Source: a virus
DNA: 45,917 bases
Strand: one strand, 5' to 3'
IMG/VR virus record: IMGVR_UViG_3300037761_000323
Under the pieces are notes generated by a model, which ran no database searches, was not told the DNA's origin, and worked only from the letters and a program-made list of their open reading frames with translations. The position numbers were made by a program, and so were the translations under genes. Shown here piece after piece: positions 4,810 to 44,249 of this stretch (the first letter of the stretch is position 1; every line of letters starts with the position of its first letter).

Positions 4810-5474
4810 GTCTCCCGGATCCGAGAGAGCGTCGCGCCCTCACGCCGCTGGAGCTCGTCGATCCAGAGCGCTTCCGCGTCGAGCGCCTCCTGGAGGTACT
4901 CGCGCCGCGGCCGCGCGAGCTCCTTCTCGTTCATGCGCCGAGCGAAGAAGGCGCCGAGCCAGCTCACCACCACGTCCTCCGCCGTGATCGGCAGGATGAG
5001 CGGCTCGGCCAGGCCTGCGATCGCGGCCGGCGTGGGCGTGTAGGTGAACTCGACCCGGAGGACGTCGTTGTAGTCCTCGACGTGGCCCGTGAAGTGGAGC
5101 GTGCTCTCCACGAGATAAGCCGCCCGGCTGTTGACGTAGCGGTTCCGGTCGCCCCACCGGATGAGGTCCAGGTCGACGGGCTCGACGCACCCGCGCACGA
5201 ACATATCGAGCGGCCGCTGGATCGCCGTGATCGGGAGCGGGCTCGCGACCGACTCCTCCGGGTCGACGAGCAGCTCGCCGGCGTCGAAGTCGGCGAGCGG
5301 GAACGTGACCACGTACGTCTCGACGTTCGAGGTCTCCTCATGCTTCGCCCACTCCCCCACGAGGCGCCGCTGGAGCCTCGATAGGAAGTTGATCGCCACC
5401 CGGTTCGGGTGGCGCTGCTGCGTGAAGCTGGGGTCCAGCTCACGCGCTTGGGCGATGATCTCCTCGGGGGTCAC
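4803..5474 (-). CDS. Head-tail adaptor-like structural protein, 223 aa.
   Basis: GTG start at 5474. Position in the operon and coding-like composition. No recognisable catalytic motif. Confidence 0.55.
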   Translation of the reverse strand: MTPEEIIAQARELDPSFTQQRHPNRVAINFLSRLQRRLVGEWAKHEETSNVETYVVTFPLADFDAGELLVDPEESVASPLPITAIQRPLDMFVRGCVEPVDLDLIRWGDRNRYVNSRAAYLVESTLHFTGHVEDYNDVLRVEFTYTPTPAAIAGLAEPLILPITAEDVVVSWLGAFFARRMNEKELARPRREYLQEALDAEALWIDELQRREGATLSRIRETW

Positions 5475-5481
5475 GGGGAGC

Positions 5482-6426: not shown

Positions 6427-6657
6427 TCACGCCGGCGGCGCGTCGGAGTGCCGCATCGCGAGGAAGGCCTGCTTGGCCGAGTCCTCGAGGTGGATGAGCG
6501 CGTTGTTGAGCAGCTTCCCATCGGGCACGACGGCCACGAGCTCGGTCGCGAGCTCGCGGTAGAGGATGGTCAAGGCGTCGATCTCGGCCTGTGTCGCCGC
6601 CACGCCTGCCTGCCCGGAGTACGCGACTGCGATGTACTCGGCGCTGGTGCGGTCCAT
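6427..6657 (-). CDS. 76-aa helical-hairpin protein, a divergent relative of the 14966-15313 product.
   Basis: ATG at 6657 preceded by GAAGAGGAATCACC. VVPDGKLLNNALIHLEDSAKQAFLAMRH aligns by eye with LVPPGREQSTALTRLEEAVMHANAGIARH of the 115-aa protein. Confidence 0.55.
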   Translation of the reverse strand: MDRTSAEYIAVAYSGQAGVAATQAEIDALTILYRELATELVAVVPDGKLLNNALIHLEDSAKQAFLAMRHSDAPPA

Positions 6658-9521: not shown

Positions 9522-11807
9522 TTACGCCACCTGTTCGGGGGAAAGCTGTTCGGAACCGGGCTCGAGGAGGCGCACGGCGTTGGCCTCGATCGCGGCGGCC
9601 TGCTGCGCGGCCGCGCCCTGGACCTGGCCCTCGACCTCGAGCTGGCGGCCCGCGGCGAGGAGCTGCGCCTGCTGCTGCGCCAAGAGGAGGCGCTTCCGGT
9701 AGAGCACCATTTCCTGCATGATCGCCGGGTCGATCTTGAGGTACTCGGGGCTCTTGAGGAACCGCTCGAGGACGTGCAGGAAGATCCCGTGATCGTACCA
9801 CTCGAAGATCGGGATCTCCGTCGCCGGAGCGCCCTGGATGAGGCGGCCGACGAACTGCTCCGCGCTCGCCCGGTCGGCTCCGCCCGGCCGCGAGGCGCGG
9901 CCCATGTGCGGGAAGCGGGATAGATCCAGGAATGTGTTGATCGCGGTCGGGGAGACCGGATCGCCCCATACGCCCGCCTGCCAGAAGCGCATCATCCGGT
10001 CCTGACGCTCGCCCCTGCCCTCGGGCAACATCGACTCGATCTCGGGGATCGCGTTGACCGTGCCCTCCTCGAAGAGCTGAGGCCAGACCGTGATCGTCCT
10101 GGCGATGTTGTCCTCGCCGACGACCTGGATCGCCTTCTCCTGATCGAGGAAGAGCGGGTACATCACCTTCCAGTCCTCCGCCATGCGCGCGAGCTCGAGC
10201 ACCATCCGTCGCATCGGTCCCGAGCTCGGCCGATCGGCGTTGAAGCGGAGCTCGCTCACGAGCTCGCCCGAGGCGCTCTTCGTCGGCGTGTTGCCCTGCG
10301 TGCCGGAGATCGAGCCGAGCATGTCGACCTCTTCCGCGAGCCGGTCAGCCGACTCGTAGACCTCGGGACCGAGCCGGCCAGGGTGCACGAACTCGATGAT
10401 CGGCGCCTTCGACTTTGACCTCGATGCGAGGACCTGGAAGCCGGGGACGTTCTTCACGTCGCCGTCCTTGATGCCCGAGTCCCGGTCGATCACCTGGATC
10501 GGGTTCGCCACGAGCGTCGCGTGCTGGATCCCCTGCGCGTGGAGCCGGTTCCGCGTCCTGATCGGTCCGTTGAGCATTTCCTGGCTGCTCGAGCCCTGCG
10601 GCCTGCCCGGGAGGTTGTGGAAGTCGAAGCAGCGGATCGGGCTCGTGTACTTGAACGGCGCCGTGCGCGGCCCGTCCCGGACGCACTTCTTCGCGCCGGT
10701 CACGATCGTCAGCCGCCCGCCGGGCGACTGGCCCGGGATCCGCTGCGTCCCCGGGAACCGGCTCGGCCGCTGCCAAAGCTCGTAGACGCTCACGAACTCC
10801 GTCGACGTCGCCGACTCGAGCGTAGCGCCCCTGCGCTGCTCGGCCGAGCCGAAGAGGCCGGCGCCGTGCAGGAGCCGCCAGATCACGCCCACGTCGTCGC
10901 CGGTCTGCCCACCGCGCACGTCGGGCTCGAGCTCCATGCCGAAGGCCTCGTAGGCCTGGAGCGGCGTCAGGAGCGAGCGCTGCATGTGCCAGGCCTTCTT
11001 GTGCCACGGGATCTGCTGACCCCATTCGCCGCGCACCTCGAGGCACGTCAGGACGTCGACCTCGAGCGCGCCCTCGTAGAAGACGTGCGGCTCGCCGTTC
11101 TCCTCGACCACCTCTCCCCCGTCCTCCTCGAGGAGGCGAGCGCGCGGGTTGCCCTGTTCGTCGAGCGGAACGTTCGGGATCTCGCGCTGGATCGGCATAC
11201 CGTCCGCTCCGAGGATCTCGGTCCCGTCCGCGCGGAGGAGCTTGAGGATCGCCGTGTCGATCGCCGCGATCGCGTCGCCCTGCATCGCGTCGATGCGGCT
11301 CTTGAGGTGGGCCCTGCCCGAGGGGATGAGCCAGGCCGTCAGTCGGTCGAGGACCTCGAGCATCCCGACGTTGTTCCAGGTGTGCTTGAAGAGCGGGTCC
11401 ATCACCTCGGCGAGCTCGGCGTCGATCCGATCGGGCCCGGGCTGCCAGGAGATCACCGGCGGGTTCTCGTTCATCCGCGCCTGCGTCAGGATGAACCAGA
11501 GGAAGAGGCGGTTGAGGACGGGCATGTGCCGCCACCTCTTCTCGTCGTCGTTCAAGTGCTCGGCGAGGTCGACGTAGCGCTGGCGGAGCTCGCTCCAGAC
11601 GATCCAGTGCTGGCCGAGCAGCATCCGGACGTTCTCCTCGACCTGGCGGTCCCGCTGGCGGAGCTTGTCGTCCTGCTCGTGCCAGAGGCCCATCACCCAC
11701 TCGGCCCGGATCGCATCGGCCACGTCGAAGGCGAAGGGATCCTCCCGCATCCGCGGGATGTCTGCGATCCGGGTGAAACGCTGGCCCTTCGCGGTGGCTG
11801 AGCTCAA
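9522..11807 (-). CDS. Portal protein, up to 761 aa.
   Basis: Size and position upstream of scaffold and capsid, with a portal-like N-terminal region (...RWRHMPVLNRLFLWFILTQARMNENPP...). The track start at 11807 is TTG, overlapping the upstream stop (TTGA). An ATG 19 codons downstream (start 11750) is an alternative. Confidence 0.8.
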   Translation of the reverse strand: MSSATAKGQRFTRIADIPRMREDPFAFDVADAIRAEWVMGLWHEQDDKLRQRDRQVEENVRMLLGQHWIVWSELRQRYVDLAEHLNDDEKRWRHMPVLNRLFLWFILTQARMNENPPVISWQPGPDRIDAELAEVMDPLFKHTWNNVGMLEVLDRLTAWLIPSGRAHLKSRIDAMQGDAIAAIDTAILKLLRADGTEILGADGMPIQREIPNVPLDEQGNPRARLLEEDGGEVVEENGEPHVFYEGALEVDVLTCLEVRGEWGQQIPWHKKAWHMQRSLLTPLQAYEAFGMELEPDVRGGQTGDDVGVIWRLLHGAGLFGSAEQRRGATLESATSTEFVSVYELWQRPSRFPGTQRIPGQSPGGRLTIVTGAKKCVRDGPRTAPFKYTSPIRCFDFHNLPGRPQGSSSQEMLNGPIRTRNRLHAQGIQHATLVANPIQVIDRDSGIKDGDVKNVPGFQVLASRSKSKAPIIEFVHPGRLGPEVYESADRLAEEVDMLGSISGTQGNTPTKSASGELVSELRFNADRPSSGPMRRMVLELARMAEDWKVMYPLFLDQEKAIQVVGEDNIARTITVWPQLFEEGTVNAIPEIESMLPEGRGERQDRMMRFWQAGVWGDPVSPTAINTFLDLSRFPHMGRASRPGGADRASAEQFVGRLIQGAPATEIPIFEWYDHGIFLHVLERFLKSPEYLKIDPAIMQEMVLYRKRLLLAQQQAQLLAAGRQLEVEGQVQGAAAQQAAAIEANAVRLLEPGSEQLSPEQVA

Positions 11808-12004
11808 AGGGGCCGGTAGCTCGCGATGTAGACCTCGAAGGCGTCCTTCTTGCCCGGAGGGACGGGGCGCCAGATCGGCTTGGGGAGCTGCGGGGGCGGG
11901 TGATACGTGTGGGCGGCGTGCCCAGCCTCGAGCGCTCGAGCGACCGCGGTGAGGCCGAGGCCTCCGGCCATGCGAAGCAGGAAGCCGCGGCGATTCGTCT
12001 TCAT
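11804..12004 (-). CDS. 66-aa micro-protein with a twin-arginine (Tat) signal peptide.
   Basis: MKTNRRGFLLRMAGGLGLTAVA|RALEAGH... has the RRxFL motif, a hydrophobic h-region and an AVA cleavage-type site. GC3 is about 88 percent by hand count. Its stop overlaps the portal start. The mature part is His/Pro-rich. Confidence 0.6.
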   Translation of the reverse strand: MKTNRRGFLLRMAGGLGLTAVARALEAGHAAHTYHPPPQLPKPIWRPVPPGKKDAFEVYIASYRPL

Positions 12005-12038
12005 GGGCCCGAACGTGTCAGGGCCCGAGCTCAGCCCG

Positions 12039-12278
12039 CTATTCGGAGAACTCCGAGGCCCGTCGCACGAGCACCCACACGAGGACGCGAAGCGCCGGGC
12101 TGAGCTTCGGCTCGAAGTCCGCGGGCAGCTTACGGTTGATCGCGGTGACGTGCGCCTCCGCGGTCCGCCACGAGACGGGCGGGTCGAGCGTGCGCGCGAC
12201 CTCCCGAAGTGAGCGAGCTCCGCCGGCGATCACCTCGAGGACGTCGAGCTCGCGGGGGGTCAGCTCTCTTGAATCCAC
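12039..12278 (-). CDS. LuxR/GerE-type HTH DNA-binding protein, 79 aa, HTH domain only.
   Basis: LTPRELDVLEVIAGGARSLREVARTLDPPVSWRTAEAHVTAINRKL matches the LuxR_C-like HTH pattern. GTG at 12278 is preceded by GGAGGGGGCGG. I reject the track extension to 12353. Confidence 0.7.
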   Translation of the reverse strand: MDSRELTPRELDVLEVIAGGARSLREVARTLDPPVSWRTAEAHVTAINRKLPADFEPKLSPALRVLVWVLVRRASEFSE

Positions 12279-12589
12279 CCGCCCCCTCCACTGTCCGTCC
12301 CGGCCCTGGCAAGGAGCCTGTACCACTCCTGCTCTGCCTGCTGCCGGGAGCATCCGGTCTCGTACATCGTTTGCTCGAGGAACTCCGCCGGCGCCTCGGC
12401 GAGCTCGCCCGGGACGCCGAGCGTCTCCTGATCCTCGGCCAAGCGCACGATCGCCCGCGGCGGCTCGTCGACCTTGAGCACGCCCTCGCGGCGCTGCGCG
12501 TCCTTGCGCCGGCCACGCTCACCGAGCCAGAGCCCGAACGCGAGGCCTGTCATGCCCGCGAGCGCTGTCAACAAAACCTCGGGTGTCAC
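12260..12589 (-). CDS. 109-aa single-pass membrane protein, function unknown.
   Basis: GTG at 12589 overlaps the upstream stop (GTGA). N-terminal helix VLLTALAGMTGLAFGLWL is followed by RGRRKD and then an acidic soluble domain. Confidence 0.6.
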   Translation of the reverse strand: MTPEVLLTALAGMTGLAFGLWLGERGRRKDAQRREGVLKVDEPPRAIVRLAEDQETLGVPGELAEAPAEFLEQTMYETGCSRQQAEQEWYRLLARAGTDSGGGGWIQES

Positions 12590-13221
12590 GAGCGCCTCCG
12601 GATGGGGGTGTCTGAGGCGCGGAGGTCCATCAGCCGGTTCGCCCCGTGGATCACGGCGATCGCTCCCGGCTCCCTGCTCCACCGCGGCTCGAGGAGCTGG
12701 TGCATCTGCCCGTGACTCCGGGCGTAGACGTGCACCTCCGCGGTCGGGTTGTAGATCGCGTAGAACGGGCTCACGCGGCCCTTCTCCTCGTACCGATAGC
12801 GGTGGCGGAAACAGGCGCCGTCCTCGAGGCGCTGCTTGATCGGCTGCCAGCTCCGGAGCTCGGTCAGGCGCGGTCGCTCGTATCCCTGGATCGTGAAGTA
12901 GCTCGCCTCGATCGTGTAGAGGAACGTCGGCCTGATCCGGTCGTCGGAGTCGAGCGTGCTCTGGATGTCGTCGCGTCCAGGCCCGAAGTGCTGGAGGACC
13001 TCGAGCGCGTGCGTCCAGCCGCCGTCCCGCACGATCCGCTCGATCGCCTCGAGGTGCCGCTCGTGAGCTCGCCACGCCCAGGCGATCACGACGTCGGGCT
13101 TGAGGTTCTTCGCCGCGGCCACCATCGCCGGGATACACGTCCGGCGCGCGAGCTCCATCCGAGCGCGGAAGTGCTTGTCGTCGTCGTAGCACTGGCGCGT
13201 GTAGACCGTGTGGAAAATCAC
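12586..13221 (-). CDS. Glycosyltransferase-like protein, 211 aa. It resembles the putative rhamnosyltransferase family, but the family assignment is tentative.
   Basis: GTG at 13221 overlaps the stop of the GT2 gene (GTGA). It begins VIFHTVYTRQCYDDDKHFRARMELARRTCIPAM... Adjacent to and translationally coupled with a GT2 gene. Confidence 0.45.
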   Translation of the reverse strand: MIFHTVYTRQCYDDDKHFRARMELARRTCIPAMVAAAKNLKPDVVIAWAWRAHERHLEAIERIVRDGGWTHALEVLQHFGPGRDDIQSTLDSDDRIRPTFLYTIEASYFTIQGYERPRLTELRSWQPIKQRLEDGACFRHRYRYEEKGRVSPFYAIYNPTAEVHVYARSHGQMHQLLEPRWSREPGAIAVIHGANRLMDLRASDTPIRRRS

Positions 13222-13979
13222 TCGCGGCGCTCGAGCGGAGTGCAGACAGGGTGAACGTGGAGGTCGAGGCCGAGCTTCGTGAGGTGCTTGGCCCGGCCGG
13301 CGAACTGGCGGCGGAGCTCGGAGCGGAAGCCGGTTCGCTCGTCCTGGGTCAGGCTGGCCGGGTGCACGCGGCGAATGTAAAGCGAGCGGTTGATGGCGCG
13401 CACGGGGATCTGGAGCGCCCTCGCCCGGAGGATGAGGTCGTGATCGGCCGCCACGGGCCACGGCCGATAGCCGCCCAAGCGCTGCCAGGCGCCGTGGGCG
13501 ATGATCGCAACGCCTCCCTTGTAGCCTGCCCGCCGGCGGATGATGCGCCCGTCCTCGCGCACCTGGGTACGCCCTCCGCCCGAGATCCCATCCGGTCCGA
13601 CGCCGGCGAGGAGCTCCCTCAGATAGCTCGGCCGCATCACGTCGTCCGCGTCGAAGATCGCGTAGGCCTCGGCCGCCTCGAGCTCGACGAGGCTGTTCCG
13701 CATGATGTAGGGCCCGACGTGCTCCCGGGCGTACCAGTGAGCCCTCCCGGCCTTCGTGAGCGTCCTGGACGTCTCCGGGCAGGCGTCGACGCCGATCCGG
13801 AGCGAGTACTCCCACCCCGGACGAGCCTCCTGGAAGTCGATCGACTCGAGCGCCTTGCCGATCCACTTGCTCGCCCCCCGGGCCGCCATGACGACGGAAC
13901 ACTCGCCCCCCGTGTCCGGAGGCGCCGGCGGGCGACGGACCGAGCCACGGCGGCCGCGGCGCCGGGGAGGGCCCGGCAT
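13218..13979 (-). CDS. Family-2 glycosyltransferase, 253 aa.
   Basis: CSVVMAARGASKWIGKALESIDFQ...AYAIFDADDVMRPSYL shows the GT-A N-terminal strand plus a DxD (DADD) motif. ATG at 13979 overlaps the upstream stop (ATGA). Confidence 0.7.
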   Translation of the reverse strand: MPGPPRRRGRRGSVRRPPAPPDTGGECSVVMAARGASKWIGKALESIDFQEARPGWEYSLRIGVDACPETSRTLTKAGRAHWYAREHVGPYIMRNSLVELEAAEAYAIFDADDVMRPSYLRELLAGVGPDGISGGGRTQVREDGRIIRRRAGYKGGVAIIAHGAWQRLGGYRPWPVAADHDLILRARALQIPVRAINRSLYIRRVHPASLTQDERTGFRSELRRQFAGRAKHLTKLGLDLHVHPVCTPLERRE

Positions 13980-14368
13980 CAGTCCACGACTTCGAGGTTC
14001 GCCTTCCGCTCTTCGTCGGCCGCGAGCGCGTTCTGACGCACGGCCCAATCCTCCGCTTCCCACCGATCGCGGAGCGCGAGCTGCTGCCAGGGCGAGAGGT
14101 TCCTCGTCCGGCCGACCTGGCCGCCGAAGAGCTGACGCCATTTCCTCAGCATCCACGCCCGAAGCCCGCGCTCCGGAAGGACGACCTCGTGGTGATACCA
14201 CGCGAGCAGCTCCCACACCTGATACCTGCGGGAGTACTCCCGCCCGTCCGGCGGGAAGCGCCACTCCCGGATCGGCGGCATCGGCGGGAGCCGCATCGCC
14301 TCGAGCCGCTGCTGCGCCTGCCGTTCGAGCTCCTCGCGCACCAGCGCGTTCTTCGGGCCCCTCGCCAT
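13979..14368 (-). CDS. 129-aa hypothetical protein, Trp/Arg-rich.
   Basis: ATG at 14368 preceded by GGGAGGCGGAGGACTG. It is the first gene after the 217-nt non-coding gap 14369-14585. Confidence 0.6.
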   Translation of the reverse strand: MARGPKNALVREELERQAQQRLEAMRLPPMPPIREWRFPPDGREYSRRYQVWELLAWYHHEVVLPERGLRAWMLRKWRQLFGGQVGRTRNLSPWQQLALRDRWEAEDWAVRQNALAADEERKANLEVVD

Positions 14369-14585
14369 CAGTCCTCCGCCTCCCTTGGTCTGCACCAGTG
14401 ACACACGGTTGGGCTCGCGAACGCGAAACGCCCACACCTCGAGCAGCCCACCGACCCATCGCCGTACGGTGGGCGATTGGCATTTTTCCCTACTCCCGCC
14501 TCACTCGATTTTCTGACGTTATTTAATGGCACGGCCTTGCCGAGCACGCCGGCGAACCGCGTGAAGAGGTCCTCTTCCAAGCCCC

Positions 14586-14969
14586 CTACGGCTCCCTCAA
14601 GAGCGCACGCACGACCGAGACGAAGAGGTAGTCCTTGCGACGCTGGAGCTCGGGGAGAAGGGCGTACGGCACGAGACACGGGTGCAGCTTCGCCTCCGGA
14701 TCCTTGTCCGGCCCGTAGGTCCACCCCTCCTCGAGCTTCCCCTGCATCCAGCGCGCGTGAGCGTCGATCGGGTGGGCGAGCGGGTTGGCGACGAGGAACT
14801 CCACGCCCTCGATCGAGGCCGAGCGCTGCCACTCCGGCGCCTCGTCCCAAGGGAGCTGAGAGTCGTCCCCGATGGTTATGCAGTACGCGCGATTCGCCTC
14901 GTGGACGACGCGGGCGATCGCCTTCACGGGCGGGAGAAGCGCCTTCTCCTGGATGCGCGGGGCGCTCAC
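14586..14969 (-). CDS. RyR-domain protein, 127 aa.
   Basis: EGWTYGPDKDPEAKLHPCLVPYALLPELQRRKDY closely matches the ryanodine-receptor repeat signature (GWTYGP...K.HPCLV.F..LPE.E..Y). The N-terminal half (IARVVHEANRAY...PWDEAPEWQRSASIEGV) also fits bacterial and phage RyR-domain proteins. Confidence 0.85.
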   Translation of the reverse strand: MSAPRIQEKALLPPVKAIARVVHEANRAYCITIGDDSQLPWDEAPEWQRSASIEGVEFLVANPLAHPIDAHARWMQGKLEEGWTYGPDKDPEAKLHPCLVPYALLPELQRRKDYLFVSVVRALLREP

Positions 14970-15313
14970 CCGTGCCTCGCGATCCCCGCGTTCGCGTGCA
15001 TCACGGCCTCCTCGAGGCGCGTGAGCGCCGTCGACTGCTCGCGGCCGGGGGGGACGAGCTCAACGATCGCGCGAGCCAGCGCCTTCGCCTGACCGCGGAG
15101 GAGCGCGTAGGCCTCCGGCTGGCCGTCCTTCGGAGCGTGGTACGTGAAGTCGCTCTCAATGCGCCCCAGGAGCTGGTTGTGTTGGACGGTCCGCGGCGGC
15201 TGCTCGACGCGCTCGAACTCCCCATGTCCTCGAGGAGCTGCGTGACCGATCGGTGGAGCACCCTGAGCCTGACGATCGAGCTCCTTGAGATCCGGGTCCG
15301 TGTCGCCCTTCAT
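14966..15313 (-). CDS. 115-aa helical-hairpin protein. Candidate Acb2/Tad1-hairpin family member, that is a possible cyclic-nucleotide sponge.
   Basis: DFTYHAPKDGQPEAYALLRGQAKALARAIVELVPPGREQSTALTRLEEAVMHANAGIARHG. From memory, the F-x-Y-H-x-P ... ALTxLEEAVMxANAxIA signature belongs to a widespread phage small-protein family annotated with the Acb2/Tad1 hairpin domain. I could not verify this here. Confidence 0.4.
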   Translation of the reverse strand: MKGDTDPDLKELDRQAQGAPPIGHAAPRGHGEFERVEQPPRTVQHNQLLGRIESDFTYHAPKDGQPEAYALLRGQAKALARAIVELVPPGREQSTALTRLEEAVMHANAGIARHG

Positions 15314-15477
15314 CGGTCGGCCCGACCGCGGGGGATGCCCGCCCGGCGGCCCTTGCGCCCCGTGGCTGGCGCGGTCCGCGGCGGCGTGTCGACGCGCTCG
15401 AGCTCCTTGAGCTGTTTGGGCGTCCCGTGCATCCTCGACTTCCTCCCCTTCTTCCCGTACCCGATTCCCTTCGGCAT
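15310..15477 (-). CDS. 55-aa highly basic micro-protein, below the ORF-track size cut-off.
   Basis: My own translation is MPKGIGYGKKGRKSRMHGTPKQLKELERVDTPPRTAPATGRKGRRAGIPRGRADR. Its ATG shares a base with the TerL TAA (TAATG) and its TGA overlaps the next ATG (ATGA). 50 of 55 third codon positions are G or C. Confidence 0.6.
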   Translation of the reverse strand: MPKGIGYGKKGRKSRMHGTPKQLKELERVDTPPRTAPATGRKGRRAGIPRGRADR

Positions 15478-17240
15478 TAGTCGATCCTCTCGATGATGGA
15501 GGGGTTGATCGCCGGGTCTCTCGGCGATGGAGTGTCCCGGATTCTACGGTGCTCGAGCTCGGCCAGCAAAGCCTCCTTGTCCCAGGCGCCGAGCTCCGTC
15601 TCCTCCTCGGGGTGGATCCGCTCGCGCACCCGGTTCCAGAGGAGCACGGAGTCGCCCTTGTCGGGGCTCCGGCCGAGGCGTTTCATGACCTCCGCCTTCT
15701 CCTCGACCTGGATCTTGCCAAGGACGCTCTTCCAGCGGATCGAGCGGAGATCCTCGTGGAGCTCCTGATCGGGCGGGAGCGCGATCCGGTTCATCTGGAG
15801 GTCGAGCGCGAGCCGCCACGCCATCGCCGCGCGCTCGTTCCGGTAGAGGACCTCCTCGCGCACGACCTCGCCCTTCTCGTCGAGCAGCGTCTCGTCGATC
15901 GAGGGCACCGCCAACGAGCCCGGGTTGATCGCCTGCACGTAGATCCCGAGCTCCTTGAGCTTGTCGACCGTGCCGCCGCCGTAGCCGCCGCCGACGTCGA
16001 CGCCGACGTGGCGCTCGTGGATGTCGCGCGTCGTTATCATCACCGCGAGCCGCACGCCGAGCTGCGCGACGTCGGGGCAGGGGAAGGAGATCACCTCGTC
16101 GAGGTGCGCGCCAAGCCCGTCCGCGATCGCCGCCTTGTCGCCGTCCTCCGAGCGCGCGACGTCGACGCCGAGCCCCGGGAAGCCCCACCGAAGGTCCTGA
16201 GCCCGCCAGCGGTCGGCCGCCCGGTCGAGCCAGACCTGGCGGATGAGCGCCTCCTGGTGCTCCGGCGGGCTGATCCCCCGGACGCGCGACTGGTAGTGCC
16301 GATGCTCGACGCCGTAGCGGCGGAGCCGGCGCAGGATCGACGCCCTCGAGACCGCGCCCGGTACGATCATCACGTCGCCCTTGACGTCGCTCCACTCCGG
16401 GTCGCGGGCGTTGTTGCAGACGATGTTCGGGTGATCGAGCGCGCTGATCCGGATGTGGACGGTCGACTCGAGCTCGCAGAACTGGTGCAGCGCGTCGTCC
16501 TGGCTGTCCGGGTTGCCGACGTAGGTGCGGAGGTTGTGGGGCGCCGTGCAGGTATTCTCGAGGCCCTGCGACGCCGCCTGGTGGAACTCCTGCGCCTCCT
16601 CGACGCTGATGTGCATGTGGGGCGCGTGCATCCCCGCGGCGCCGGCGGCGATCTCGGTCGCCGCGCCCACCTCGACGCCCTGACCGAACGCGCCCCACCC
16701 CACGCTGTCGCCCTCGCGGAGCTTGCCGTCCATCCGGATCCGGAGGGCCCCGAGCGTCGCGGAGGGGAAGAGGACCTTGAATCGGGGCCAGAGCTTGCCG
16801 AGCTCCATCCACGAGTACTCGCTGAGCTGGTCCTTCTTCGAGGCGAAGTCGAAGCAGCGCGCGCCCTGCCAGGACGCCAGAAACCACAGCTTCACCAACG
16901 CGAGCCCGAAGCTCTTGCCCGTCCCCGTCCCGCTCTCCACACCGACGTCCTTCCACTCCGCCGTCGCCCGGAACCATGCGGCGAGCGGGTCCGGCGTGCC
17001 GTCCCATATGTGGCCCTCGTACTCCGGGAGCTCGCTCCACACCAGCGTCTCGCGACGGATCCCGAGCTCGGCCGTCATGAAGCCGATCGGGTCGTCCTGG
17101 TAGTGCGCCATCCCGGGCGGCGCCTCGGCGGCCGTCACGATCTCCGCCCCAGCCTTGCGGATGCCCTCGGCCACCATCGAGCGCGGCCGCTGCTCCCACC
17201 ACGCGCCGGCGAGCGGCGCCGAGCTGCTCCGGTCGGTCAC
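15477..17240 (-). CDS. terL: Terminase large subunit.
   Basis: Walker A VESGTGTGKSF and Walker B-like HMHISVEEAQ, followed by a C-terminal nuclease-sized domain. GTG at 17240 overlaps the upstream stop (GTGA). ATG at 17177 is an alternative start. Confidence 0.9.
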   Translation of the reverse strand: MTDRSSSAPLAGAWWEQRPRSMVAEGIRKAGAEIVTAAEAPPGMAHYQDDPIGFMTAELGIRRETLVWSELPEYEGHIWDGTPDPLAAWFRATAEWKDVGVESGTGTGKSFGLALVKLWFLASWQGARCFDFASKKDQLSEYSWMELGKLWPRFKVLFPSATLGALRIRMDGKLREGDSVGWGAFGQGVEVGAATEIAAGAAGMHAPHMHISVEEAQEFHQAASQGLENTCTAPHNLRTYVGNPDSQDDALHQFCELESTVHIRISALDHPNIVCNNARDPEWSDVKGDVMIVPGAVSRASILRRLRRYGVEHRHYQSRVRGISPPEHQEALIRQVWLDRAADRWRAQDLRWGFPGLGVDVARSEDGDKAAIADGLGAHLDEVISFPCPDVAQLGVRLAVMITTRDIHERHVGVDVGGGYGGGTVDKLKELGIYVQAINPGSLAVPSIDETLLDEKGEVVREEVLYRNERAAMAWRLALDLQMNRIALPPDQELHEDLRSIRWKSVLGKIQVEEKAEVMKRLGRSPDKGDSVLLWNRVRERIHPEEETELGAWDKEALLAELEHRRIRDTPSPRDPAINPSIIERID

Positions 17241-17443
17241 AGCTTGAGGCCCTTGTAGACGTAGCGGAAACCGTCCATGATCGGCCGCTCGCGGATGTAG
17301 ACCACATCGCTCGGGCGGAGCGGGGCCTTCACCGCACGGACGCTCGGGATTCCATTCTCCGCCACCCACAGCTCGGACGGAAGAACGCCTCCGAGGGTGA
17401 GCTCCTTCCCGTCGAAGGGCCCGCCGATGAAACGAGCGATCAA
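17237..17443 (-). CDS. 68-aa hypothetical protein.
   Basis: MIARFIGGPFDGKELTL... It is coupled by 4-nt overlaps on both sides. Confidence 0.55.
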   Translation of the reverse strand: MIARFIGGPFDGKELTLGGVLPSELWVAENGIPSVRAVKAPLRPSDVVYIRERPIMDGFRYVYKGLKL

Positions 17444-41500: not shown

Positions 41501-44249
41501 CGAGATCGCTTTGCAGATCGGCGAGGGCGTCTTGGTCGATGTCTTCGTCCCCCGCGCGGACAGACTCCGTGATCCGCGAACGGAGCCCCTTCTCTTCGAC
41601 GATCTTGGCGACCTCCTCCTTCGTGAACGTCTGGCGGAAGTCCTCGATCGACGGGTCCCATATCGCCTCCAGGATCTCCTTCTCCTGCTCCGTCGAGATC
41701 CGGCCCCTGTTCACGAGGTTCCGCGCGGCGATGTTCGGGCTGGTCCATTGGCCGCCCACGGACTGGTTCTGCATCTCCTCGGCCACCATGTCGACGAGGT
41801 GGCCGTTCTCCAGGAGCCCCGTCCCACGTAGGCGAGCTGCCGTCGCGGTCGTGCGCCGATAGTCGGTCGGCCTGGCAGGCGTGAGGCCCCGCGCAATCGA
41901 GTCGAGCTCGTCCTGCGTGACGCCCTTGTTCTTGAGGTAGGCGAGCCATCCCTCGCCACTCTGCCGGGTAGGCGCCTTGGGCTCCTCGAGCGCTCGAGTC
42001 GCCTGCGAGTAGTAGCGCCCCTGGAGCGGACCCCGCCCGGACGTGGCGAAGCCAGCCTGCCCGGGCGTGATGCGGTTGATCCTTCTCGCGAGGCCAGGGA
42101 GGCCGAGCGCGACCGCTGCCCCGACGAGCGCACCTTGCCCGGCCGTCACTTCCTCGGAGGGACCGCCCACCACAGCTCCGCCCGCGGCGCCGAGCGCCGC
42201 TCGACCGAATGGGCGAGCTGCCGCGGCCGCGGCGATCTCTGCAAACGAGCGGCGGGCCTCCTCGGTGCGTGCACGCACCGGCTCAGCCTCCGGCGCCTCG
42301 GCGCCCAGCTCGGCGGGTCGAGCTGCCTCCGCTGATGGGGCCTCCGCTCGCGCCGCTGGCGCCCCTGGAGCCTCGAGGACCTCGGGCGCCCTCCCGGCAG
42401 GCGTTTCCCGTGAAACGCCTCCTGGGGCCTCCTGGCGCGTCGCGAGGTCTCGAGCCCTGAGCTTGCCCGAGGCCTTCTTCGCGGTCGCGGCCGCTTCGTC
42501 CGCCGCGCGGAACGTCTCACCCACGCCGAACCGAGCGCTGAGCGTGAACTCGGTCCCCTCGATCGGCCGCTCGCCGAGCGCGTCCTGGACGGCCTTGCCG
42601 AGCCTCGCGCCCTCCCCCTTCGGCGCGGCGATCACGAACTCGTCGCCGCCGGCGCGGAAGAGCTGGCGCTGCTCGAGGCCGAGACGCTGCATGATCTTCC
42701 CAACCTCGCCGAGGATCTCGTCGCCCGCCTCGAGGCCGTGCGCGTCGTTGACGGCCTTGAAGTTGTCGAGGTCGACGATCACGAGCTCCGTGTTCGGGTC
42801 CGCGTCGAGGCGCGACTTCGCACGGCTGAAAGCGGTCTGATTGCGGAGGCCCGTCTTCGGGTCGGTGTATGCCTCTTCGAGCTCCTGACGCACGGACGGA
42901 TCGGCTGCCTCGGCGATGCGCCGCCGGATCGTGCGTTGTTCCGGTGGCGGTGCAGACGGTTGCACACCCTCGGGCGCGGCCGCGTCCGGCGCGCGCAGGC
43001 GGTCCTGCTCGGCGCCGAACGCCTCGAGCGCGGCCTGGCGGAGGTTCGGTGGGAGCTCCTCGATCGCCTGCACCATCGCGGGCGCCGGCGTGCCAGAGAA
43101 CTCGGCCGCGGCCGCCATGCGACCGAGCCGCTGCGCTCGAGGAACGGCGCGGCGGCGTCCGAGCGCCTCGAGCCCCTCGCCGAGCCCTTGGCCGAGCACC
43201 CATCCCGTGAGGACCTCGTACGTGCCGCGCGACACGGCATCGCTCGCGACGTCGGCGAGCTCCTCGTCGCCGGTGAGCATCGCCAGCGCACCCGACATCG
43301 ACTCCTCTGCGCCGGCCTGCGAGATCACGACGTCGATCGGAGCTCCGGTCAGGAAGTTTTGGGCCGCCCGCTGCGCGAGGCCCTGCGGCCGTGCGAGGAA
43401 GTTGAGGAACCGCCCGGTCCCGCCGGCGGCCTGCGCCGCTTGAGCTCCCCTCGAGGCCAGCGCACCGGGCATCATGAAGAGCGCACCCTCGCCGGCGAAC
43501 TGCGTCCCGATGTTGGCGGCCAGCCCGAGTCCCGTCTCCGGCTCCGGGTACTCCTCGCGGGCGAGCTCCCTCGAGGCGCGCACGTTCGCCGCGCGCCGGT
43601 CGGTCATGTCGAGCTGCTCGCCCTCGGGATCTGCGATGCGCTCCGCGAAGGGCCGGCGGGCCGCTCGTTCCCCCCTGCCACGCGGCGGGAGCGTCTCGGC
43701 GAGGCCGAGCGCCGTGCGGTGGCCCACCTCCGACGCACCTCGACCGACCTGGCCCGGGATCTCGGGCACGCCCTCCATGAGGCCGAGCATGGCGCGCTCG
43801 GTCGGGCTCAGGAAGTCCTCCCGCATCGAGGGACGCGGCGCCCCGTCCTGCGCGACCTCCTCCTCGTCCTTGCCGAAGATGGCCTCGTAGCCGAGCTGTA
43901 CGGTGCGCCCGACGCCCTTCACGCCTCGAGCGACGCGGCCGAGTACTCCGGGCGGCTGCTCAGGACCGGCAGGCGGCTCGGGCTGGAGGCCGGCGGCCCC
44001 AGGTCCGGGACCACGCGCTCGAGCCGGCCGCCCGGTCGTGTCGGGCGGGGGGGCGGGCCCACGCGCTCGAGCCGGTGGTGCCTCCGTTCCAGCCGGAGGC
44101 GGAGTCGTTCGGCGAACGGGCGGAACCGTCTCAGGCGGAGCCTCGATCGTCTCCGCGGCGGGCTCAGTCGTTCCGCGTGCAGCTCGGACGCGGGCGAGTG
44201 TGCGCTGCCGCCTGATCCGCGCGAGGAGGTCCTCTTGCGTCGTGCCCAC
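35529..44249 (-). CDS. Giant 2906-aa multi-domain (polyvalent-type) virion/ejection protein with GGDEF and HExxH modules.
   Basis: Single uninterrupted ORF. GTG at 44249 directly follows the upstream TAA. It occupies the last ejection-protein position of a P22/T7-like layout. Order of parts: Pro/Ala-rich N-terminus, GGDEF domain, two glycine-zipper hydrophobic patches, HEAGH motif, then a long helical C-terminal region. Confidence 0.85.
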   Translation of the reverse strand: MGTTQEDLLARIRRQRTLARVRAARGTTEPAAETIEAPPETVPPVRRTTPPPAGTEAPPARARGPAPPPDTTGRPARARGPGPGAAGLQPEPPAGPEQPPGVLGRVARGVKGVGRTVQLGYEAIFGKDEEEVAQDGAPRPSMREDFLSPTERAMLGLMEGVPEIPGQVGRGASEVGHRTALGLAETLPPRGRGERAARRPFAERIADPEGEQLDMTDRRAANVRASRELAREEYPEPETGLGLAANIGTQFAGEGALFMMPGALASRGAQAAQAAGGTGRFLNFLARPQGLAQRAAQNFLTGAPIDVVISQAGAEESMSGALAMLTGDEELADVASDAVSRGTYEVLTGWVLGQGLGEGLEALGRRRAVPRAQRLGRMAAAAEFSGTPAPAMVQAIEELPPNLRQAALEAFGAEQDRLRAPDAAAPEGVQPSAPPPEQRTIRRRIAEAADPSVRQELEEAYTDPKTGLRNQTAFSRAKSRLDADPNTELVIVDLDNFKAVNDAHGLEAGDEILGEVGKIMQRLGLEQRQLFRAGGDEFVIAAPKGEGARLGKAVQDALGERPIEGTEFTLSARFGVGETFRAADEAAATAKKASGKLRARDLATRQEAPGGVSRETPAGRAPEVLEAPGAPAARAEAPSAEAARPAELGAEAPEAEPVRARTEEARRSFAEIAAAAAARPFGRAALGAAGGAVVGGPSEEVTAGQGALVGAAVALGLPGLARRINRITPGQAGFATSGRGPLQGRYYSQATRALEEPKAPTRQSGEGWLAYLKNKGVTQDELDSIARGLTPARPTDYRRTTATAARLRGTGLLENGHLVDMVAEEMQNQSVGGQWTSPNIAARNLVNRGRISTEQEKEILEAIWDPSIEDFRQTFTKEEVAKIVEEKGLRSRITESVRAGDEDIDQDALADLQSDLETRQEELSDMEIRLEDYESGGDAHSDVRLEAEDRASRYVEELDDALREEGGLLSDKQRDELNARIVELAEEGADNERGSTRTMELIRDEVRDTIGDDTFFERWDLDDGSGLEDAVQRWRDLATYARETQDTIDELHNDISSLRAQIEEAEEGGADLAAGYEQWTQPGGRDYHEIIVQIDEGEHGFKGHHTERDPFAFSRAKIRDTFDGLEVYHVEESQSDLHQQGREQGYKPDRLPAGWVVRPVELERDAMAIATRFYGEGVAERAAPYVARGELPPGMQNQPDPGTWQWIVVDGKGRIRAHGHAGTAAKEMALRNNNLAPDVPFKSTEDWTLVNVKRALWQAIEEGADAMTWVSGQQAADNYNFARYGVTRVEFNQRTRAFRAYKGNQVATEQIATVDGRGSLNDLLGRDVAEELLAKAPVEGPPAKIEWNGGTEQLDRLALGRADRVHGRFEGVGVIEVSQATGGFRWEQTYRQGGHGYEMRADYEAPNGDRYFAIREPTEGGTLELNIYHLPAGHVDEGDANVLWRSTVLIDQEAANLAFTNQLRILGLPVEEIGYRVEVETGYNEVNLTQIVDRLDEVDAFVRGVGGKGSSDDLLRLEFDRGVQIGGHAMKQYYDVIYTGVVRKYLRSLKLDAKIEPFRVSEVGVLVGDEWVESATTTRPTQGFPENQARALNRLVNNTQEAVELLGMEPREPAGVEDLATRIRFMANQVRRYVVEGSSGPAAIQKTIDEQGLFATPELLEAWKQRIELYPEIREIQTWEAPVTNLGVRLTPELIAKIKTEGQRLGYLHPALLRPLAGAAIGATGGAAVADEVGLSPAFGAFLGASVGAGLGFVGMGRYRPSPGARRAAETFNVLERRIDPEEVGTRALAPTAQAGERLPSAGKFYENPQAIRADLVSPVEIIGKLGEAMDEAMPALGLKVATGRVPRSRNPLLQTLGIFKARQQVIRQVDISDVPVFGHEAGHAMHKLFFGSTPRGNLSNADLKALPGPIRGELDDLSKGISDESLAEGWAEFWRRYLDNPDVLPREAPNTLRFVEERLEGFPELRASWQNARADWTRYRESDALSRVWSKISVGDRDAPALSIEERWSRARTIVLDDMEPVRRLVEKIREGVGVEDFADEADSLARLSRGSVGVGMHVLEHGMIDFRTLRKIGPGLKQIIAPVVEDLDDFRIYMVARRAQELHGRDKLTGFRNEDVDASVRQLDAQHGDRFTEAFKGVQEWNEGLLKYLRDSGVISSDSYDAILELNQSYVPFYRVREGGSAGGLGETYGHLFSPIKRLKGSGLDVIDPLESLAKNAMVYTQIAQKQQVSRALASLANKPGVGSVLEKLGSPIKRVELTLGEIEKQLAEILPGSDELLARVRRLAQERYDAATAGMTPGEILTSGITLDDPAEEVLAFFRPGDYMGKPNVISVLQDGRRAWYEVDKELYAALEGLNTEQLDGWARWLGIPARTLRAGATLAPEFLIRNPLRDQVMAFIQSEYGYVPGVDMARGIFELFRRGEAYQQWLSAGGYRAALTSLDRKSMQNAVTNLVEGGGIRNVLKTPFDALQALSALMEDATRMGEFLNARAQQHAFGGAHGFKGRVQLALGKGAKGPYAKETLQQAALASREVSIDFARHGAKTAAIRNLSAFWNARLQGYERMARAAHEDPVGFTAKAFAIITVPSLLEYYSNMDDPDYWEKAQWERDLFWHFRIGDDWVVVPKPFELGLIFGTLPVRILDSAIKGPGGGHELRAFLEEFAGGQVSGLLPSPTAIEPLIENAVNYSFFLRRPIVPESEEEVRVQYQAGPYTSEVAKMLARWTHRIPIASEFIGSPREIDNLLFAWTGGLGRVATELADPLLEGRLPFTSGDVPPIGGRATDVPGIRGVLDPQAGFNSESIARFYQVYEEARVATSSLRYLERSGNVEAYEAELADPAFSDLRQREPTLRAAAADLAELRAQVEAIRRDQEMSPEDKRAAVDALGRVARELAQSALGRELPGGGG
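38598..38612 (-). other. HExxH zincin motif (HEAGH), residues 1880-1884 of the giant protein.
   Basis: The context is VPVFGHEAGHAMHKLFFG. Confidence 0.6.
42462..42866 (-). other. GGDEF (diguanylate cyclase-type) domain, residues about 462-596 of the giant protein.
   Basis: TDPKTGLRNQTAF...VIVDLDNFKAVNDAHGLEAGDEIL...LFRAGGDEFVIAAP...LSARFGVG...ADEAAATAKKASGK. The GGDEF codons are at 42636-42650. Confidence 0.85.

Follow-up and report, generated by a model that had tools for sequence, protein, structure and literature searches.

A probable counter-defence cassette of RyR-domain and Acb2-like hairpin genes downstream of terL in an uncultured high-GC phage

Three small genes located immediately downstream of terL in the IMG/VR viral record IMGVR_UViG_3300037761_000323 are likely to constitute a compact counter-defence cassette. 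Throughout this text the window refers to the whole stretch of DNA that was analysed, which is 45,917 nucleotides long. The first gene of the cassette is a 55-amino acid (aa) micro-open reading frame (micro-ORF), the second encodes a 115-aa helical hairpin protein, and the third a 127-aa protein with a ryanodine receptor (RyR) domain; the two larger genes are new members of families with an already published counter-defence role. We estimate a probability of about three in four that the products of these genes would work as sponges for immune signals, the RyR protein as a dimer and the hairpin protein as an Acb2-like oligomer. A counter-defence function had previously been proposed from the sequence alone, and our analysis supports it: both domain assignments pass the curated Pfam thresholds, and both families have experimental backing.

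The RyR repeat noticed by this sequence-only reading in the 127-aa product was confirmed by a match to PF02026 above the curated threshold (E 1.7e-11, 44.6 bits versus a cut-off of 27.4). A phmmer search of the PDB returned chains of the RyR Repeat12 (R12) at E-values as good as 1e-22, together with the phage protein RyDEP (35TM, E 1.4e-9). The AlphaFold2 (AF2) model of the protein, obtained with a predicted local distance difference test score (pLDDT) of 89 and a predicted template modelling score (pTM) of 0.80, has the four-helix R12 fold, with helices at residues 13–32, 46–61, 67–80 and 107–124. When this model was used as a Foldseek query, the top matches were all RyR R12 or Bacteroides RyR structures, with a probability of 1.00 and a best E-value of 4.8e-5.

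The same reading had described the phage RyR domain as recurrent but devoid of known function, a description overtaken by two reports showing that RyDEP (PMC13232231) and RyR Tad (10.64898/2026.06.04.730250) bind or hydrolyse 2’- and 3’-cyclic ADP-ribose (2’cADPR and 3’cADPR) and block Thoeris. RyR Tad, which corresponds to gp68 of Pectobacterium phage vB_PatP_CB1 (CB1), is a dimer, and its RyR domain is sufficient on its own to block type I Thoeris; it binds 1’’-3’ gcADPR (i.e., 3’cADPR) with a dissociation constant of 43 nM, and its ligand is contacted by H129/W132, K147/H154 and K170/D171 (10.64898/2026.06.04.730250). All six of these residues are conserved in the 127-aa protein, as H71/W74, K89/H96 and K112/D113, and they are invariant or nearly so in 10 homologues. 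A closer comparison is provided by gp072 of Pectobacterium phage CB4, the CB4 counterpart of CB1 gp68, which is 51% identical to the 127-aa protein across the entire RyR domain (BLASTP, E 7e-41) and which shows a single difference from the RyDEP homologue H7 over the aligned RyR domain. The 127-aa protein likewise resembles the homologues H6–H8 listed in the supplementary table of PMC13232231 far more than it resembles RyDEP itself. The protein is a member of the RyDEP/RyR Tad family and, judging by its sequence, most likely of the sponge type, with 3’cADPR and 2’cADPR as predicted ligands, and its gene can be annotated with reasonable confidence as encoding an anti-Thoeris protein.

The assignment of the 115-aa protein to PF24729 is secure. 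Its residues 57–113 cover the whole 58-position model (E 5.6e-17, 62.1 bits versus a cut-off of 27), which corroborates the earlier assignment of the FTYHAP signature to the Acb2/Tad1 hairpin family, and the validated Acb2 of phage JBD67 scores a comparable 59.6 bits on the same model. The protein also matches phrog_1454 (E 5.4e-24). Among the 5.8 billion proteins searched we found 205 relatives, most of them 69–90 aa long, and PF24729 is present in all 120 of the 205 homologues that were listed; the subfamily is additionally represented in 273 cultured phage records. An alignment of 33 relatives exposes a rigid core, RIxNDFTYHxP...R..AKELA...VPxGREQSTALTRLEEAVMHANAGIAR, with 13 invariant positions (F56, Y58, H59, R73, P88, R91, E92, T98, L100, E101, A107, N108 and A109). 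In the AF2 monomer (pLDDT 83) the protomer core of two long antiparallel helices is present: a short helix (residues 41–55) and the FTYHAP segment are followed by helices 66–86 and 91–114, both with a pLDDT above 90. The conserved core spans residues 41–115, and the first 40 residues form a low-confidence N-terminal extension, of which residues 1–30 have no secondary structure and an average pLDDT of about 60. Since the first 62 codons of the reading frame contain no other ATG, GTG or TTG, this extension is real.

The relative of known structure that lies nearest to the hairpin family is Acb2_43 (PDB 9PTQ), an Acb2-like protein crystallized as a hexamer that sequesters 3’cADPR and blocks type I Thoeris but not CBASS, and that contacts its ligand through T4, H5, L6 and V7 of the N-terminal strand together with K19 and K55 (bioRxiv 10.1101/2025.08.24.671296). 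When the family profile was searched against all PDB sequences, it matched Acb2_43 over its full length with an E-value of 3e-7, aligning H59 with H5 and R73 with K19; the match to Tad1 chains was limited to 21 residues of helix 2 (E ~0.01), and no match to classical Acb2 was obtained. The claim that the family sequesters cyclic-nucleotide immune signals is supported, with one correction: its nearest characterized relative is a 3’cADPR sponge and not the classical Acb2 that binds cyclic GMP–AMP, to which there is no significant direct profile similarity. Taken with the family assignment, these data make it a well-founded inference that the 115-aa protein is an oligomeric sponge for a nucleotide immune signal, which may be 3’cADPR or one of the cyclic di- or tri-nucleotides of CBASS. 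We also noted that Y58/R73 and R91/T98 can be placed opposite the cyclic GMP–AMP residues Y11/K26 and the cA3 residues R67/T74 of the PaMx33 and JBD67 proteins with equal spacing, in alignments that are either non-significant or made with MAFFT only; the Y11/K26 mapping is not claimed here, as the hhalign comparison with classical Acb2 was not significant.

Several observations weigh against the proposal that the two genes encode sponges. On the side of the RyR protein, both sources describing the function of its family are 2026 preprints. As for the hairpin protein, only two of the six ligand positions of Acb2_43 are kept, with T4, L6, V7 and K55 aligning with Y58, A60, P61 and A109, and the hhalign comparisons of the family profile with JBD67 Acb2 and with a 20-sequence Acb2 profile were both non-significant. 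Structure searches with the AF2 monomer gave nothing at E <= 0.001 in the PDB with Foldseek and only generic helical bundles (Z <= 9.8) with VIA-align wide, a monomer model being a poor probe where folding yields an interlocked hexamer. In the literature examined we found no assay of the FTYHxP...ANAGIAR subfamily, and Hadary et al. saw no inhibition of any of seven systems with about a quarter of the sponge homologues that they assayed, 19 of 84 (bioRxiv 10.1101/2025.08.24.671296). The two genes, moreover, are seldom found together: a RyR gene occurs within 5 kb of a hairpin gene in one of 80 IMG/VR viral loci and near one in three of 67 metagenome loci, the latter corresponding to two phages.

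The three genes were earlier described as coupled and as directly following terL, and inspection of the junctions agrees with this description. The terL stop codon and the micro-ORF start share one base (TAATG), the micro-ORF stop overlaps the start of the hairpin gene (ATGA), and the stop of the latter overlaps the start of the RyR gene (GTGA). In a genome with a GC content of 69%, the GC content at third codon positions (GC3) reaches 0.89 in the micro-ORF, 0.82 in the hairpin gene and 0.91 in the RyR gene, and the frame plot tracks the reading frames of all three. Because the chain of overlapping codons begins at terL, the three small proteins are most likely made alongside the packaging and head proteins. 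Once produced, the 127-aa protein would dimerize and bind 3’cADPR and 2’cADPR in a pocket formed by H71, W74, K89, H96, K112 and D113, so that, with the Thoeris signals captured, a ThsA-type effector of the host would never be switched on. The 115-aa protein would in turn assemble into an Acb2-like oligomer, with pockets composed of the invariant FTYHxP segment together with R73, and could sequester a second nucleotide immune signal, either 3’cADPR, as Acb2_43 does, or a cyclic di- or tri-nucleotide of CBASS; the 55-aa peptide may have a role of its own.

The micro-ORF is an orphan. Its product is very basic and of low complexity, rich in arginine, lysine and glycine, with the N-terminal motif MPKGIGYGKKGRK; it has no match in Pfam, PHROG or NCBIfam, and a search of 1.84 billion representative proteins yielded no homologue at E <= 0.001, nor did the protein atlas. 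It is consequently possible, though on balance doubtful, that the micro-ORF is not a functional gene but a frame left open by chance in the high-GC spacer between terL and the hairpin gene, a view favored by this lack of homologues and family matches and by the low-complexity composition. However, the frame fits exactly between its neighbors, overlapping both, and is preceded by the purine-rich stretch GAGAGGA, while its GC3 and its GC content at second codon positions (GC2, 0.62) are typical of coding frames in this genome. In addition, its N-terminal 13 residues recur at the beginning of a second gene of this genome: the motif MPxGIGYG[KR]xGR[KR] is common to the micro-ORF (15455–15477, minus strand) and to the gene that starts at position 383 on the minus strand (361–383). 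A degenerate DNA pattern of the motif found two hits in the genome and none in 100 shuffles. A 34-aa ORF (5376–5480, plus strand) in an unrelated phage, locus L068, the second gene beyond the hairpin gene there, begins with a similar N-terminus, MPKGVGYGKKG, and 10 of its first 11 residues are shared with the micro-ORF. These features suggest that the micro-ORF is probably translated, even though MPxGIGYG-type N-termini correspond to no known family or function. The two copies within the window can be written together as the 13-residue form MP[KP]GIGYG[KR]xGR[KR] and are encoded with different codons; the gene starting at position 383 runs across the genome ends.

An alternative for the RyR protein is that it acts as an enzyme. 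RyDEP (gp78 of Mycobacterium phage DyoEdafos) is a glycosidase that opens 2’cADPR and 3’cADPR by hydrolysing their ribose–ribose bond to give linear ADP-ribose (ADPR), using an H75/D117 dyad, with W78 stacking on the adenine and H100 on the phosphates (PMC13232231). These four residues align in the 127-aa protein with H71/D113, W74 and H96, and the spacing of all four, as well as that of the six RyR Tad residues, is identical, so the H71/D113 dyad might hydrolyse 2’cADPR and 3’cADPR to linear ADPR. However, none of the eight RyDEP homologues tested cleaves these signals, even though the residues are conserved, and in six of them binding was the sole activity (PMC13232231). The 127-aa protein, furthermore, is only 34% identical to the enzyme by BLASTP (gp78 taken from MN234187), a value well below that obtained with CB4 gp072, itself closely related to H7 and RyR Tad, which are of the sponge type. 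The DyoEdafos gene also lies inside a NARP1-type NAD-salvage operon, and none was seen near the RyR gene described here, the whole genome not having been searched for one. An enzymatic function is accordingly unlikely, and a sponge remains the better description of the 127-aa protein.

To place the cassette in context, we surveyed the neighborhoods of hairpin genes in other phages. No Pfam family is common to their downstream neighbors across 71 loci, and the hairpin genes therefore behave as expected of mobile accessory genes; the upstream neighbors, in 75 loci, are heterogeneous as well, with several terminase subunits, portals, adaptors and tail proteins among them. Conserved hairpin–RyR synteny as a general rule was rejected, given the single viral locus in 80, the absence of RyR genes among the 71 downstream neighbors and the absence of hairpin genes from all six RyR loci inspected. 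Nevertheless, three more phages were found in which the two genes co-occur alongside genes for packaging or heads, and these exceptions agree with one another. L144 has, in this order, a hairpin gene, a cold-shock protein gene, a RyR gene, a 283-aa ORF and terL; in L115 the hairpin gene is followed by six small ORFs, the RyR gene and terL; and in L068 the RyR gene follows the portal gene and the hairpin gene is the second gene beyond the capsid gene. A crude background estimate, based on RyR genes in 292 of 50,697 cultured phage records and assuming that about 10 kb was surveyed per locus, predicts well under one hairpin–RyR locus in ~147. The association looks real but loose, as in anti-defence hotspots.

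Since at least four unrelated phages, this one included, have the pair alongside genes for packaging or heads, one may ask whether hairpins of the FTYHxP subfamily form a functionally linked pair with the phage RyR domain and are not independent sponges. The hairpin partner might then capture a signal for which no sponge has so far been described, or take up a product released by the RyR protein, and the MPxGIGYG peptide could be a third, lineage-specific component. We consider this quite unlikely and retain two separate sponges as the preferred interpretation.

The same survey yielded a number of observations on individual genes. In L115 (6674–6979, plus strand), and also in L114, a RyR homologue adjoining terL has lost about 30 residues, including the ligand-contacting histidine and tryptophan, and is probably a decayed or repurposed copy. 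The protein encoded between the hairpin and RyR genes of L144 (1314–1577, plus strand), just upstream of the terminase genes, carries a cold-shock domain (PF00313, E 1.3e-31); L144 is a high-GC metagenomic phage and L115 another metagenomic phage. Several Paenibacillus phages have hairpin-family genes labelled “phosphomannomutase”, cyanophage S-2L has one labelled “tail assembly protein”, and some phage records give RyR-domain genes the name “minor head protein” or “alanyl-tRNA synthetase”; these labels are likely misannotations.

A second hairpin copy had been proposed directly after the major capsid gene, and this proposal holds only in part. The 76-aa ORF exists, with a GC3 of 0.94, and a series of sub-threshold signals ties it to the hairpin family: it matches the 115-aa protein by BLASTP (E 5e-4) and phrog_1454, the PHROG of the hairpin protein itself, at E 0.006; a three-sequence profile, built with the only two homologues that exist, aligns with the family over 43 columns in hhalign (76% probability, E 2.3e-5); and 29 of the 30 nearest clusters in an ESM-Atlas protein-language-model search carry PF24729 (score 0.91). 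On the other hand, neither the ORF nor its two homologues match Pfam at E <= 1, which leaves them below the threshold for membership, the hhalign comparison with classical Acb2 was not significant, and the ORF has neither the FxYHxP strand nor the invariant residues R-E, T and N. From its sequence, the 76-aa ORF is a probable degenerate hairpin paralogue of doubtful binding ability; it may work like, or derive from, the PF24729 family, and should not be filed as a member.

The location of both hairpin genes raises the further possibility that the 115-aa and 76-aa proteins are small head or packaging accessories (e.g., assembly factors) that share only the helical-hairpin fold with Acb2 and Tad1. 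Hairpin genes often reside in structural or packaging modules, with a terminase, portal, head–tail adaptor or tail protein upstream in many of the 75 loci; that of L068 is flanked by the genes for the capsid and the adaptor, conservation within the family is unusually strong, and there is neither a direct profile link to classical Acb2 nor an informative fold search. However, the validated acb2 of JBD67 likewise lies between the major head gene and the head–tail adaptor, so position is no argument against a sponge, and Acb2_43, a proven sponge, is matched full-length by the family profile. The downstream neighbors, in addition, are wholly heterogeneous, many loci are non-structural (primases, ribonucleotide reductase, methylases, integrases), and in cultured mycobacteriophages the hairpin gene is found in early or accessory regions. 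A purely structural role is therefore very unlikely, and a sponge is again the preferred reading of the 115-aa protein.

The coordinates of the features discussed here are collected in Table 1. The positions of terL and of the portal gene imply that the two are separated by about 3.7 kb of accessory genes, of which the three-gene cassette is the first part. The true start of terL may be downstream of the first GTG; the protein has no Pfam match, and no match to NCBIfam was obtained for any of the six proteins scanned. The cassette ends in a non-coding gap. A short inverted repeat (GAAGAG-GAC-CTCTTC) occurs there, as does the one AT-rich patch of the area, and a consensus scan of this gap revealed no minus-strand terminator after the RyR gene. 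Directly beyond it lies a 152-aa ORF (13979–14437, minus strand), rich in tryptophan and arginine and with good coding statistics, for which Pfam, PHROG and NCBIfam gave no match; it could be a further accessory or counter-defence gene. The remainder of the island (11804–13979, minus strand) encodes a protein with a GerE/LuxR-type helix-turn-helix (PF00196, E 1.4e-5) and two ORFs with weak signals for a PF13632 glycosyltransferase or DUF5648 that are sub-threshold in Pfam. Elsewhere in the genome, the GGDEF domain mentioned in the sequence-only reading is present within a 2906-aa ORF; the nucleotide-messenger theme drawn from it is a putative association, for which no mechanistic link to the cassette emerged.

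Table 1. Positions of the cassette genes and of other features of the window
Feature	Coordinates	Strand	Evidence
terL, large terminase subunit	15477–17369	-	phrog_2, E 2.4e-15, residues 127–584
55-aa basic micro-ORF	15310–15477	-	ORF between terL and hairpin gene
115-aa hairpin protein gene	14966–15313	-	PF24729
127-aa RyR-domain protein gene	14586–14969	-	PF02026
Non-coding gap ending the cassette, 148 nt	14438–14585	.	Sequence reading and frame plot
Portal gene	9522–11807		phrog_156
76-aa ORF	6427–6657	-	Directly after major capsid gene; GC3 0.94
GGDEF domain in 2906-aa ORF	42465–42872	-	PF00990, E 3.6e-18, 66.3 bits versus cut-off 23.8; RAGGDEF motif

If the sponge assignments are correct, this uncultured 45.8-kb high-GC phage would have a minimum of two sponge-type genes for immune signals, and perhaps a third, within the late operons for packaging and head proteins. 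Sponge genes can adjoin structural genes, and would then be co-produced with the packaging and head proteins. The phage has no close relatives in the three collections searched with terL (no tblastn-confirmed relative in IMG/VR, GTDB species genomes or JGI metagenome contigs), and its lineage appears poorly sampled. The cassette also suggests a host with signalling of the Toll/interleukin-1 receptor (TIR)/Thoeris type, and the hairpin subfamily, which is both very conserved and widespread, is a good candidate for ligand screening.

Compared with characterized systems, the RyR protein is most similar to RyR Tad and H7. They share a single RyR/Repeat12 domain (PF02026), the same six 3’cADPR-binding residues and the same predicted four-helix fold, but the 127-aa protein is stand-alone and lacks the ~70-aa N-terminal domain of gp68 and H7. 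The genomic settings differ too: the genes of RyR Tad and H7 adjoin a primase in an N4-like anti-signalling hotspot, whereas in this 69% GC phage the gene comes after terL as part of a late-type operon. RyDEP is, like the 127-aa protein, a stand-alone protein of similar length with the same domain, in which H75, W78, H100 and D117 have conserved equivalents. It is nonetheless a more distant relative, at only 34% identity, and a glycosidase from a NARP1 NAD-salvage operon, whereas the 127-aa protein is closer to the sponge-type homologues.

For the hairpin protein, Acb2_43 is the best solved relative, at about 29% identity (our own count from the printed alignment). In both proteins a short N-terminal segment precedes two long antiparallel helices, and both contain the phenylalanine, a histidine (H5/H59), a basic residue (K19/R73) and the P-x-G-R-E...T-x-L-E-E-A motif; they differ in four of the six ligand contacts and in the 40-residue low-confidence N-terminal extension of the 115-aa protein. 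Classical Acb2 (PaMx33, JBD67 and T4 Vs.4) and Tad1 belong to the same Pfam family, PF24729. Tad1 shares with the hairpin family the sRE..aLT.vEEA motif of helix 2, but its N-terminal domain is absent from the 115-aa protein. The arrangement of the genes also has a precedent in Pseudomonas phage JBD67 (NC_042135, 21500–24500), in which the order is scaffold, major head protein, 64-aa ORF, acb2 and head–tail adaptor. The validated acb2 is part of the head-gene block and is separated from the major head gene by a single small gene, near the position that the 76-aa ORF takes here directly after the capsid gene; with acb2 inside the head module of JBD67, the placement of sponge genes in a late operon is therefore not unusual.

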